From the IMG/VR virus record IMGVR_UViG_3300036766_000678, positions 96,001 to 160,000 of that record: a stretch of DNA of 64,000 nucleotides, one strand, 5' to 3'. The stretch is from a virus. The translations under genes were made by a program, and so were the position numbers. Within the stretch, counting starts at the first letter, position 1. Every line of letters starts with the position of its first letter. Under the pieces are notes generated by a model. The model ran no database searches and was not told the origin of the DNA. It was given only the letters and a program-made list of their open reading frames with translations. Positions 21,530 to 56,990 of the stretch are shown in pieces.

Positions 21530-24500
21530 TTATTTTTTAGGTACATCATTAATTGTCTTATGTTTTAATGTGCCCATACTTCTAAAAATATTTCCAACTT
21601 CGTCATGATCACTAGGATCATAAGTCAAATAAGGGACACGAGTGGCTTTCTTCTCATTAACTGTAGAAGAGGGCATTGGAAGTTCTTCAATAGCTTTTTC
21701 CATGGCCTTTAACGCCATATCATCGAAGGCAAGTAATTCTTTATGCTTGGCCTTAATTGCATGAGTCATAGCTTTATGACGAGCATCTAATAGATAAGTA
21801 CCAGATTTAAGTTCACTATCTAGTACATCTGGGCTCAATTGAAGAACATTTTTGTCAACCATATTAGCAACAATTTTCTGGCATCGTTCAGAACGTGCAG
21901 AAAGAATAGCAGCAAATTTCTTTGCTTTCTCTTCCTCTTGAGCCTTAACTTCAATAGCTTTTAGTTCGGCCTCTTTCTTAGAAATAGCTTCCTCACGAGT
22001 TTTAAGAGCAGATTCTTTCATACCCATTTCATCTTCATGAGCTTCTTCAAGTGCGGGATGCTCTTCAACTTTAGGAGCCTCTTCCATCTTAGGAGCTTCT
22101 GGCATAGCGGGAGCCATCTCAGGCTTTTTTTCCTCAACTGGAGGAAGACCAAGAACAGCTTTCATAAGCTTAAGCACTTCACCAACTTCTTTACCAAAAC
22201 CATCTGGCAATCTTTTAACTTCCTTGCCATCTTTCTCAATAATAACTTCTTTAGATTCTTTGTCCTTATGAGCAGAGTATCCTTCACCAATATCAAGTTT
22301 ATCTGCTTTATCAAATGCAGAAACTTCTTCTTTAGGAGTATCACCAGGGAGAGCTAAATTCTCAGTTTCGTGCTCAGGAACTCCAGCAGGTTTCTCTTCA
22401 ACCTTAACATCATCAACTAAAGGATCTGCGTGTTCAGGTGTAGGAGGCATTTCAGTTGCAGCAGATTTATTAACAGCCACATCTGGCTCTTTTGTAAGAT
22501 TAGGAGTAGTATGTTCTGTTTTACCTTTAACAGCTTCATCAGGCTTGCTAGAGGGATTAGAAGAAGGTTCCTTTTTATCCTTTACTGCTTGATCTGGTTC
22601 CTTAGTTAAATTAGGTGTCTTATTTACTTTATCCCCATCAACACTTGTTTCAGGAGTAGCAGATTTGCCTTCTTCTGGTAAAGTTGTACCCTTAACAGAT
22701 TCATCTGGTTTTGCATCAAATTTTTTCGTACCTTCTGGTAAAGTAGATCCATCAACTGCTTCTGTTGGTTTATCAGCTGCTTTCTTTTCCATAATAGTCT
22801 CCTGAGATGATTTCTTTGGAACATCCATACCCTTTTCTCTAGCTTCAGAATAGGCTGCTGCTACCGCTTGGGCTCGTTCCATTCCATCTTCTTTAATATG
22901 TTTTTCTACATGCTTCTTAATAAATTCTTGTGCTTCGGGTGTCATTGAAGACCACTTAATTTGTGCATTAGCTTCTTTATAATTAACAGAGGCTTTCTTT
23001 TCATCAACTAATTTGCAAGGTTTACCATTCATACTATGTCGTCCATATTCCAGCATCTCACCACATTCGGGACATTTTGTTGCTGCTTCTTTTTTAGAAC
23101 CCTTCTCTTCAGCTTCCATTTCCTCAGTTCCCTTAGCTACATAAGAAGTTTCAACCTCTTTCTCTGATTTCTCCAGTTTCTTCTCTTCTGGATTCTTAGG
23201 AGTAGTGGTAACTTCTTTACCTTCAGCTTCAGGCTTAGGTTCTGAATAATCTGTTTTTACTTCTTTTGCTTTAGGGGCGGCAGGTCCTGTTTGACCCTTT
23301 TCCTGCCCTGGCATTTTAAATTGTGGATCAGTCTTAGCATCTGTACCTGCTGGTGCTGCTGGACCTTTTTGAGCTTGTTCCTGTCCTGGTTTTGTTACTG
23401 GGGAATTTTTAACATTGTGTTCTTTATTATTTGTGCCAGTAGAAGGTTTTGCATAACTACCATCAGGTCCTAGTTCTGGACCTTTTGCGGTTTTATTTAA
23501 TTTATGTGTTACATCCCATAAATCAGCCAATTTCTCAATTCCTTCTTTAGTATAACGAGCAACAACCTCTTTACCATATGCTTCACTGGTTGCCCATTTC
23601 TGATCATCAAAAGAAAGTGTTTCAAATGTACTACCCCAAATATCTTTAAGAGAAGCATCTAATAGGCACTTAGCATCTTCATACACTGACCAAGTAGAAG
23701 CAAGTACATTATTTTTATCTTCATTAAATTTGGCTGAGATGGAAGATTTCTTATCTTTTTTCTTCCCATAATCACATGTTACACACGTAACTTCATCCCC
23801 CACTTTACGGGCAGCAACACTATCACAGTTTGGACATTTGACAAATTCTGTTTTAGCTGTTTCTTTTCCCAATTCCTCTTTAGCCACTGCTTCAACTTTC
23901 TTTTCCAATAATTGAGCAGCAAAGCTATCTTTTACTTTAGCCACAATTCTAGATAGAAATGTTTCTTCTTTCTTAGTGGCATCAGCAACCACTTCTTTAT
24001 TAACTACTTCGTTAGCTTTCTTGGTTTTATGCTGAATATAGCTCTCAAGTTGCTCCATTTCTAGGGCGGAAATTTTTGATAAAATCTTTTTTTGATCTTC
24101 GGATACAATATTCTTATCTGACATGGATGACTCCTTGGATGATTCTTGTGCTTCTTTATCAGTAGTTGGGCAAATTCCGCAGAACTCAGCCTTCAAATTT
24201 TTTGCTGTCTCTGAATCTACTTTAGTTAAAAGACCTTCAAATTGTTTTACAAAATCTTGTTGCTCATCTTTAGAAAGAGCGGCGGTTTTCGAAAGTCTGC
24301 TTCTCATATTGCTTAAAATTGTTTTCACAATCGCTTTAGGGTCTGCGGGAATTCCAACCAAAGACAATTCATTGAATGCAATCCCACTATTTAAAGACAT
24401 GGCTTTAACTTTTTGACCTTTAGAAATGTTATACTTAAGATTATCAACTTCAGCATCAAACTCATGTCCCAAAGAAAATGCTTCAAGATGTTTACAACGT

Positions 24501-55481: not shown

Positions 55482-56990
55482 TTATTTCTTTTGGAGTTCT
55501 TTTTCCAAATCTTCTTCGGACTCTTTCATGTTGGTGGGAATGTTATCTACTCTGGCGATACTTTCAATTCCTGTAGCTGGATCGGTTACAATTTTCCAGG
55601 GGCTCTGCACTTCCGCAGACTTATTTAGTTCAGCTACTTTAGCAATTACTTCTGCTTTAGAAGCATGAGATTGAATTTCTGGTTGTGCCTTTGCATAAGA
55701 TATTCCACAAGCTTCACAAGACATATTATCTTTGACTCCGTTAGAAAGATCCCGACCCTCTGATCCACATACGGGGCAACTACCACAATGAGATTCAGTT
55801 TTTAGAGAAGATTCTGCAAATTTAGAAGTAAAATGTTCAGCAATCTCAACCCAATCAACTTCTGCCAATGCCCAATTAATCATATCATCCCATAAAGATG
55901 CACCGAGATCTGGTTTAGCTTCCTCAACCAAATTCTTTAATGATTCTGCTAATTGATTTGGATCTTGAATTGTCTGGGCCATTTCAGCAGAAACTGCATT
56001 AAGTCCCTGATCATTATCAAGCCACAATGCAACTTGCCATGTCTCAGAATTTTTCCAGCCCTGATAATCCGCTTTCTTATTTAAATTAGCATTTACGAAC
56101 ATTTTGGGTGTATCGAAACGACAAATTGTATAACTTTTGCCATTTGCGGTTATAATAAATCTTTCACCTTCTGTAGCAGTAATTTCATAATCTCCACCAG
56201 CACTTAAAATTGTGCCTTCTTTTGACATCACACTCCTGGCGAGAGTTATCTTGTTTCCTATTTTTAACTCGTCTGGATCTCTCACTAGAAAAGCATCTAC
56301 TTTTAAAGAGGCTTTCTTATCCTGTGGTTCACCTGGTTGCTTTGTCACGTCTTGCCTTTCCTCAGCTTCACGACCATTACCTGCACCAGCTTGGGTTGTC
56401 TTCTCTTTGTCAGAGATAACGAAATCTTTATCTTTGGCTTCTTTTCCTTCCCAATTCTGCTTACCTGTTTCTGGCTTAGCCCCAGAAAAAATATCCTTTT
56501 CTTTAGGTTCTTCTGGCTTAGCTTCTTTAGTGTACTTATCAAAAGATTTTTGCCAATCTAACTGGGCAGACATTCCAACGTGTTCGAGAACTTCCTTCTC
56601 GCACTTCTCACGACTAGAGGCCACATCACGCTTCGCCTTTTCTTTTAACTCGACAGCCATTTCTGGGAGGTTTTGAGCTTTCTCTCCCCTAATATTCATT
56701 AGCCATTCTGCGAGAGCATAATCACTCAAGATCTTAACACTTTTTTCATAATCTTTCTTAAGAGTATCTTCAACAGTATCAAAAGAGGAATATGCAGCCG
56801 TTTTCCCCAAAGCTTTTGCTTCTGCTTCTAGATTAGCATTGTATTCTTTGTCAACTTGATCTGCATCAATTTTCATTGATTCTTGAAGCCACGTACTGGC
56901 TTTAACCTTTTTATCAAATTCAGTCTGAGCATCAGTCTGCTCTGCTTCAATCTCAATCTTATTATTCAAAAATTTATTAAGCCATTCCAT
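55482..56990 (-). CDS. large multi-domain hypothetical protein
   Basis: Contains a YQGWKNSETWQVALWLDND module after LNKKAD, and a CPVCG..CEACG ribbon. Confidence 0.5.
   Translation of the reverse strand: MEWLNKFLNNKIEIEAEQTDAQTEFDKKVKASTWLQESMKIDADQVDKEYNANLEAEAKALGKTAAYSSFDTVEDTLKKDYEKSVKILSDYALAEWLMNIRGEKAQNLPEMAVELKEKAKRDVASSREKCEKEVLEHVGMSAQLDWQKSFDKYTKEAKPEEPKEKDIFSGAKPETGKQNWEGKEAKDKDFVISDKEKTTQAGAGNGREAEERQDVTKQPGEPQDKKASLKVDAFLVRDPDELKIGNKITLARSVMSKEGTILSAGGDYEITATEGERFIITANGKSYTICRFDTPKMFVNANLNKKADYQGWKNSETWQVALWLDNDQGLNAVSAEMAQTIQDPNQLAESLKNLVEEAKPDLGASLWDDMINWALAEVDWVEIAEHFTSKFAESSLKTESHCGSCPVCGSEGRDLSNGVKDNMSCEACGISYAKAQPEIQSHASKAEVIAKVAELNKSAEVQSPWKIVTDPATGIESIARVDNIPTNMKESEEDLEKELQKK

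Follow-up and report, generated by a model that had tools for sequence, protein, structure and literature searches.

A short amino acid motif, in which a hydrophobic residue is followed at two-residue steps by lysine and alanine, recurs through the head-assembly genes of an uncultured virus, and the question raised by this locus is what the motif does there. The window analyzed here is the whole stretch of 64,000 nucleotides that corresponds to bases 96001-160000 of the 180,416-bp IMG/VR virus record IMGVR_UViG_3300036766_000678, with nearly all genes carried by the minus strand. Positions 21530-56990 of the window form the head-assembly module, which comprises a protease-scaffold open reading frame (ORF) with an intein, a portal gene with two inteins, the gene for the large terminase (TerL), and a run of large ORFs (Table 1). 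The closest cultured phage by TerL is Bacillus phage G (Donellivirus gee), at 30% identity. Relatives were found via TerL, and the uncultured ones in IMG/VR are 62-66% identical in this protein, including a complete 192-kb genome, hereafter G001 (TerL 66%). On the basis of sequence, structural models, and analogy to known systems, the motif is probably the recognition and cutting site of the phage’s own prohead protease, which would free the protease and the scaffold and cut the multi-module head proteins.

The full motif is [LIVMF]-x-(K, rarely R)-x-(A, sometimes G or S), usually followed by S, A, or G. The counts given here are of [LIVMF]-x-K-x-A, with expected values from within-protein shuffles. 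All 26 hexapeptides listed in an initial annotation of the window are present in the minus-strand ORFs to which they had been assigned. The list holds real instances, yet it overlooked about ten others, the total being 36, and several of its members, such as the one in TerL, are chance matches. The ORFs of the head module thus carry 36 motifs versus 17.9 expected (z 4.5), while the remainder of the 180-kb genome carries 61 versus 50.4. When shuffling was restricted to windows of 12, 20, or 40 residues, which keeps the local composition, 0 of 300 shuffles reached 36. Permuted orders and spacings of the same residues have observed-to-expected ratios of 0.6-1.3 in this head module, compared with 1.95 for the motif itself, and ratios of up to 1.6 in the head module of G001. 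With S, A, or G required after the alanine, an extension that was picked after the data had been seen, the counts are 17 versus 3.2 expected in the head module and 14 versus 9.0 elsewhere.

For replication in G001 and phage G, the motif was fixed beforehand. The four bins that hold the head module of G001 contain 58 motifs versus 20.4 expected, and 23 versus 4.7 with the S/A/G extension, in contrast to 60 versus about 57 and 11 versus about 10.7 in the other sixteen bins. In phage G, the head module (4963-29574) contains 25 versus 9.7 expected, and 12 versus 1.9 with the extension, whereas a 50-kb control of tail and replication genes contains 19 versus 16.9 and 3 versus 3.5. Because the head bins are enriched and the other bins and the control are not, the excess is specific to the head rather than general to virion genes, and it is common to a deep lineage. 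An enrichment over background confined to head proteins, as expected from the initial annotation, is therefore found in this genome, in G001, and in phage G. The motif also favors N-termini, occurring within the first 70 residues in 6 of 17 head proteins versus 9 of 109 others (p 0.006), and in G001 in 8 of 16 head proteins versus 9 of 103 others (p 2e-4).

In alignments with G001 (35-55% identity), 13 of 29 sites keep the hydrophobic residue, the lysine, and the alanine, versus 24% for all comparable triples. Counting back from a cut after the alanine, these residues occupy positions P5, P3, and P1, which are kept while P4 and P2 vary, as in the window/G001 pairs VKKEAS/IGKTAS, LSKTAA/ISKKAS, and IEKVAT/VKKEAS. 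Ser or Gly can substitute for Ala, and Arg for Lys; the lysine (or arginine) is the most constrained residue. Ser for Ala is seen at N-termini, where MLEKIS↓G and MLTKSS↓S of the window correspond to MIDKTA↓G and MKKSA↓S of G001 (arrows mark the end of the motif, the point of cutting if the cut follows the alanine).

Some of the listed or counted hexapeptides were rejected as sites. LNKAAV of TerL is aligned with MVELAM in G001 despite the 66% overall identity of the two proteins, and TerL is not a prohead component. LEKIAS of the protease intein, FRKNAA of a portal intein, and ITKRAK of an HNH endonuclease are regarded as false positives.

The protease domain forms the N-terminal part of the ORF at 21530-26236 and is fused to a scaffold-like region; the portal, TerL, and capsid genes lie within 12 kb of this gene. 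The ORF matches PHROG 18299, “head maturation protease” (E 1.5e-5), while the protease domain has no Pfam match up to an E value of 1 and no sequence match in the PDB. Its fold was examined on an AlphaFold2 model of the intein-free G001 orthologue by a Foldseek search, followed by structural Z scores. The domain spans residues 40-236 of this model with a predicted local distance difference test (pLDDT) score of about 90. The top structural match is the pseudorabies assemblin pUL26N (4v08; Z 10.9, root-mean-square deviation (rmsd) 2.8, 119 residues aligned), and T4 gp21 (5jbl) is matched with Z 10.8, rmsd 2.3, and 128 residues aligned. The top seven Foldseek matches, and all of the top ten, are herpesvirus proteases or gp21, and the next unrelated fold has a Z of 6.6. 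As modeled, the protease domain thus has the herpesvirus assemblin/T4 gp21 fold. H97 and S152 (in the sequence SMG; G001 numbering) do not vary among 40 homologues, the most distant of which are about 20% identical. The intein of the window protease is inserted two residues past this invariant serine (VSMG↓C, the arrow here marking the insertion point), so that the enzyme must splice before it can act.

A Cys-x2-Cys...Cys-x-His cluster directly follows the catalytic-type serine and is invariant in 40 of 40 aligned protease homologues. It lies at 24281-24562 in the window, within the C-extein, and at residues 162-179 in G001, and it resembles a zinc-ribbon insert. To our knowledge, such an insert has not been described for gp21 or assemblin. 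A homologue of the protease domain is found in 307 records, which include cluster C mycobacteriophages, many Erwinia and Dickeya phages, and others. In Mycobacterium phage LinStu, the homologue (gp97) is annotated as hypothetical and has a tail of about 1000 residues fused to it.

The motif brackets both the protease and the end of the scaffold. A candidate leader site lies 12 residues from the protease N-terminus and is identical in G001 within a stretch of 41% identity; in the G001 model, it falls in segment 1-33, which has a pLDDT below 50. Among 59 protease-scaffold homologues, 40 have the motif within the first 30 residues, and distant homologues start with MLKFAA. A second candidate, of the release type, follows the protease domain directly. 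In 52 of the 59 homologues, the domain ends with a VPADPTA anchor, and 46 of these have the motif within the next 45 residues, typically as M/I/L-S-K-K-A-S-L, versus 20% of random 45-residue windows. Of the six that lack it, four have K/R-x-G↓SL, and two have no site. In G001, the post-domain site lies in a low-confidence linker (238-249). The third candidate is of the maturation type. Among 39 close homologues, about 35 have a K-x-A-(S/T/N) counterpart that lies 33-45 residues from the C-terminus and is followed by a conserved tail (IF..MGT). Among four further candidate sites within the scaffold, three are conserved in G001, in whose model LTKTA↓K and VKKAA↓A are at or in disordered segments and IEKLAD is in a helix. 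VEKDAL, at the end of the long scaffold helix, was discarded, as the window has VDKNVL at this position and the motif is not kept.

The 1281-residue protein is a chain of unrelated enzyme modules with a predicted site at each junction. It contains a nucleotidyltransferase-like N-domain (a weak match), a HAD-like domain, a 2H phosphoesterase, and two YWIDP modules; no peptidase family was found in it by Pfam and PHROG scans. An AlphaFold model of residues 240-1281 (me9f15aa2ef00) covers all predicted sites but the N-terminal LTKSS↓S. All six internal sites (after residues 304, 431, 537/543, 660, 997, and 1181) lie in segments with a pLDDT below 50. In the part of the model that precedes the long disordered stretches, such segments account for about 12%, and four of the six sites are in that part. 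Two further K-x-A sequences, the only ones without the hydrophobic residue, are located within the HAD and 2H domains, in helices predicted with confidence. The expectation that the motif would map to inter-domain linkers and not to folded cores is thus borne out by predicted structures, both in this model and in that of the G001 protease-scaffold protein.

Homologues of 1324, 1642, and 2087 residues differ in module content, with conserved sites in variable flanks. Across 31 homologues of 755-2196 residues, the domain content is shuffled (2H, HAD, ART-PolyVal, ParB; PF18760, PF02195, PF18823), and the motif with its S/A/G extension occurs 69 times versus 10.8 expected. In 8 of 10 copies, the YWIDPxGK module starts 0-7 residues after K-x-A; the other two copies follow RQA↓SL and IAA↓SL. 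A search for short stand-alone proteins that correspond to single modules returned mostly contig-end fragments, together with one free 2H protein (P0094), which aligns with residues 812-976. A search for the polyprotein pattern across viral contigs gave no match.

The YWI(D/S)PxGK module itself has no Pfam or PHROG match. It occurs twice in the window (43725-44174, residues 661-810; 44862-45242, residues 305-431) and in up to five copies in the G001 homologue.

Other head proteins show the same placement. The portals of 16 relatives begin with a leader that is hypervariable in length and sequence, continue with a tandem G-phi-x-K-x-A-S-phi-x-K-x-A-G, and then enter a conserved core. In the 534-residue protein, which is 37% identical to its G001 counterpart, IEKYA↓D is matched by IEKAA↓R and IEKVA↓T by VKKEA↓S. 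In the 502-residue protein, LGKTA↓A is identical in G001 and LNKSA↓E corresponds to ISKKA↓E, while the Pfam DUF7249 match starts at residue 307, at the LNKKA↓D site. In the 682-residue protein, position 19 of the phrog_17808 profile aligns at residue 490, such that the module would start near the 474/475 site; its G001 homologue is modular and 1026 residues long. The G001 homologue of the 917-residue protein is likewise modular, with 1284 residues, and VQKEA↓S is not cleanly aligned there. The initial annotation had taken two compact modules that follow such sites for stand-alone phage proteins. The one with the signature YxGWxNxETW is DUF7249, and the WCVRS module is without a family match: no named family was found in PHROG, Pfam, or Atlas, where its scores are 0.80, and tblastn gave a single weak match (E 5e-4). 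When the proteins were divided at the sites and the segments compared with PHROG, Pfam, and Atlas, DUF7249 was almost the only family identified.

The 639- and 325-residue proteins correspond to a single ORF of 1178 residues in G001, in which the 325-residue protein is the N-terminal part. Homology of the latter to G001 stops at its FGKEA↓D site, and LNKVA↓I of the 639-residue protein is LNKRA↓T in G001. The split of the gene without loss of either half fits modules that work after separation.

An HNH endonuclease ORF (52164-52973) splits this 1178-residue-type gene within a nonhomologous linker that has motif sites on both sides. At the gathering threshold of Rfam, the region around the endonuclease ORF gave no group I intron match.

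In T4, phiKZ, and SPN3US, many head and internal proteins carry the motif of the respective protease (gp21, gp175, and gp245), often as part of N-terminal propeptides (PMC10052503). The system described here resembles that of T4 gp21 (substrates gp23, gp22, IPI-III, and Alt) in the protease fold, in a short motif with alternating specificity positions, and in the location of the gene within the head module. In contrast, T4 gp21 cuts after Glu at L/I-x-E, and the phiKZ and SPN3US enzymes cut after Glu at A/S/G-x-E, whereas a hydrophobic residue, Lys, and Ala are constrained here. The substrates of those phages mostly lose one propeptide, whereas the chains here reach 1281 residues (2087 in G001) with a site per junction.

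A parallel in gene layout is herpesvirus UL26, a protease-scaffold fusion with release and maturation sites that have Ala at P1 (YLQA↓T, VQA↓S; PMC4498786). Shared with UL26 are the N-terminal protease fused to scaffold, one site just past the protease and another a few tens of residues before the C-terminal tail, and a small residue, Ala, that precedes Ser or Thr. The two differ in that the hydrophobic residue is at P3 in herpesviruses, whereas Lys takes that position here and the hydrophobic residue is at P5. The phage domain also has the extra invariant Cys/His cluster, and its sequence similarity to the herpesvirus enzymes is undetectable. We know of no herpesvirus protease that processes arrays of cargo enzymes.

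Chains of unrelated enzymatic domains have been described as polyvalent proteins (Iyer, Burroughs, Anand, de Souza, and Aravind 2017), which are proposed to travel with the DNA and to be processed by embedded metallopeptidase domains or not at all (PMC5512222). The multi-enzyme proteins described here are like them in having several unrelated domains per chain, in the shuffling of these domains among relatives, and in being encoded among virion genes, but differ in that their junctions carry the presumed motif of the head protease. Phage G has a protease domain that is 35% identical, a motif excess confined to the head module, and the motif both after the gp19 protease domain and in the portal leader. 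Unlike in the window, its protease is a separate protein of 300 residues (gp19) that is not fused to a long scaffold, and its genome is 498 kb. No published K-x-A prohead motif was found in the literature, and the accessible part of the phage G multi-omics paper, which includes particle proteomics, reports no cleavage sites.

A maturation pathway can be proposed from these features. The enzyme would be a Ser/His protease that becomes active only once its intein has been spliced out. Inside the assembled prohead, it would free itself from the scaffold just past its own domain and would then clip the scaffold 33-45 residues before the C-terminal tail. Short leaders would be removed from the portal and other head proteins, and the large multi-module proteins would be cut at every module junction. 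Nucleotidyltransferase-like, HAD, 2H phosphoesterase, DUF7249, and unnamed modules would be left in the capsid. Cleavage, the responsibility of the assemblin-fold protease for it, and the packaging and later ejection of the products are inferred.

The motif is read as a cutting site because it is in excess only in head proteins, persists where the flanking sequence has changed, occupies linkers and the borders of leaders, and brackets the protease and the scaffold tail. The prohead-protease processing proposed in the initial annotation is supported to the extent of enrichment and linker position; cleavage itself is deduced from these, and the specificity given there, Ala at P1 and Lys at P3, is one of two that fit the sequences. 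Several findings weigh against a cleavage code. In an unbiased scan of the head proteins of the window, the motif ranks about 117th among about 200,000 three-position patterns (p about 1e-4), a scan dominated by Cys/His zinc-finger and helical E...K patterns, and the window alone therefore does not carry the claim. About half of the 36 instances are background, two of the seven in the G001 protease-scaffold protein lie inside confident helices, and the major capsid protein is without a convincing site. The homologous protease of the cluster C mycobacteriophage LinStu has no motif after its domain, implying a specificity that belongs to the lineage and is not given by the fold. A second protease gene (27931-28596) is present within the same module, and sequence cannot place the scissile bond. 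The low rank, together with the fact that the motif was picked by eye from these same proteins, which are rich in K, E, and A, would suit a pattern that arises from composition or helical periodicity in head proteins rich in Lys and Ala and was singled out afterwards. Such an origin is largely refuted and is considered very improbable: the excess was replicated in G001 and phage G with the motif fixed in advance and is not seen outside head modules, it persists under local shuffling, and no enrichment is seen when the motif is reversed or re-spaced. The sites also lie in predicted linkers rather than helices and are kept where the surrounding sequence has diverged.

The confinement of the excess to the head, the linker position, and the conservation of the sites fit binding as well as cleavage, and the motif could instead be a docking or targeting peptide for the scaffold, the capsid interior, or the protease, with the multi-module proteins staying whole in the virion. 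Some sites, moreover, are 1-6 residues from the N-terminus (MLTKSS, MLEKIS, and MLKFAA in the distant homologues), where the benefit of cutting is not obvious. A role in docking is nevertheless held to be unlikely, as one targeting peptide would suffice, whereas the motif is found at every module junction, up to seven times per protein; it also brackets the protease domain and scaffold tail in the manner of the herpesvirus UL26 release and maturation sites, and the gene that is split by an endonuclease ORF, with both halves kept, fits pieces that work separately. Less probable still is cutting after the lysine by another enzyme, either a host protease or the product of the second protease gene. 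The latter has clear trypsin-family matches and a gene position conserved in G001, and the constraint on Lys (or Arg) would agree with such an enzyme. However, a lipoprotein-type signal (a hydrophobic stretch and a Cys) in both genomes indicates that it should be exported and miss the proheads, a plain trypsin-like specificity leaves the constraints on the hydrophobic residue (-2 from Lys) and the small residue (+2) unexplained, and the placement of the motif around the assemblin-fold protease and the scaffold points to that enzyme instead. For the phage’s own prohead protease, a cut after Ala is moderately favored over one after Lys, as it agrees with the precedent of assemblin and with a small residue at the next position. 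With the cut after Lys, the hydrophobic residue would be at P3, mirroring L/I-x-E of T4, and this placement fits the sequences equally well.

The trypsin-family gene is situated between the portal and head protease genes, as it is in G001, and its product carries the lipoprotein-type signal.

If K-x-A is the code of the protease, mature head proteins could be predicted from sequence in a large, mostly uncultured phage lineage, as could the small enzymes that are likely delivered with the DNA, including candidate counter-defense enzymes. The 2H phosphoesterase is of a kind used against cyclic-nucleotide defense signaling. A hydrophobic/Lys/Ala code would constitute a third specificity class beside the known Glu-specific phage prohead proteases, and a phage with the release- and maturation-site layout of UL26 would bear on the evolution of the protease family. 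The idea is directly testable, since phage G is cultured and liquid chromatography-tandem mass spectrometry data exist for its particles. A wider hypothesis, which is tentative and rather doubtful, is that a single gene in the lineage that includes phage G preserves the complete logic of UL26 (protease with release site, scaffold with maturation site, and a putative capsid-binding tail), that a small-residue↓Ser specificity is ancestral to the assemblin-type proteases of Duplodnaviria, and that the same code was taken over to load and release swappable enzymes for injection. In that case, the sequence of any member would directly reveal its set of injected effectors.

Table 1. Features of the head-assembly module and its candidate cleavage sites (window coordinates; arrows as in the text)
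Feature	Position	Strand	Matches and remarks
Prohead protease (residues 1-147 and 559-~645, intein between) fused to scaffold-like region; 1568 residues	21530..26236	-	
Candidate leader site ILKTA↓A	26186..26203	-	12 residues from protease N-terminus
Protease intein	24563..25795	-	Pfam Hom_end_hint and Intein_splicing
Candidate release-type site LSKTA↓A	24278..24295	-	Directly after protease domain
Candidate scaffold sites IEKLA↓D, LNKTA↓K, MEKKA↓A, VNKSA↓A	22457..23539	-	
Candidate maturation-type site NEKKA↓T	21641..21658	-	37 residues before scaffold C-terminus
216-residue head-module protein	26239..26889	-	N-terminal site LNKQA↓V (26821-26838); LTKEA↓A in G001, 43% identity
Trypsin-family protease gene	27931-28596		Pfam Trypsin_2 E 1e-23; PHROG “protease” E 3.5e-20
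Portal with two inteins	29534..33523	-	PHROG portal E 5e-27; intein, HNH, and LAGLIDADG matches
Candidate portal leader site VKKEA↓S	33428-33445	-	
Large terminase TerL	33847..35490	-	Carries LNKAAV, judged a chance match
917-residue head-module protein	36924..39677	-	C-terminal site VQKEA↓S (36987-37004)
534-residue head-module protein	39704..41308	-	Sites IEKYA↓D, ITKTA↓E, IEKVA↓T
1281-residue multi-enzyme (“polyvalent”) head protein	42309..46154	-	Pfam and PHROG domains
Candidate junction sites of the 1281-residue protein			LTKSS↓S, VNKLA↓S, ISKIA↓G, MSKFA↓S, PEKKA↓S, IDKNA↓A, LEKIA↓G
682-residue head-module protein	48266..50314	-	Sites LKKKA↓D, IVKNA↓E
639-residue head-module protein	50320..52239	-	Sites LLKIA↓S, LNKVA↓I (before WCVRS module), LPKEA↓G
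325-residue protein	52973..53950	-	Sites LEKIS↓G (residues 2-7), FGKEA↓D
502-residue head-module protein	55482..56990	-	Sites LGKTA↓A, LNKKA↓D (directly before DUF7249 module), LNKSA↓E

A group I intron match in Rfam (19869-20190; 58.9 bits) falls within the first part of the capsid gene, and the G001 capsid gene is an uninterrupted ORF of 331 residues. LQKIA↓Q in the first capsid exon was set aside as a candidate site: it is identical in G001 and hence uninformative, and its counterpart in the 282-residue capsid protein of phage G, judged by eye, is a K-x-A-free stretch near the N-terminus. The ORF that adjoins the capsid gene (16660-17388) has four motif matches versus 0.46 expected, an excess that is perhaps due to chance. 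It does not encode a head protein, and an ISKKAYIGSA stretch suggests a GIY-YIG endonuclease. A tRNA gene is present at 15791-15862.

Two regions among the head genes (26831-29534 and 46412-48065) hold many small Cys-rich ORFs with NLEYLE-like tails, in which the motif is not in excess. At 54185-55450, a protein of 421 residues has 0.7% Lys versus about 10% in the proteome, is without the motif, and has a Ser/Thr-rich N-terminus. It may be a fiber or decoration protein that avoids lysine, and its C-terminal 60 residues resemble a Leptolyngbya phage protein and proteins of 735-kb uncultured phages.

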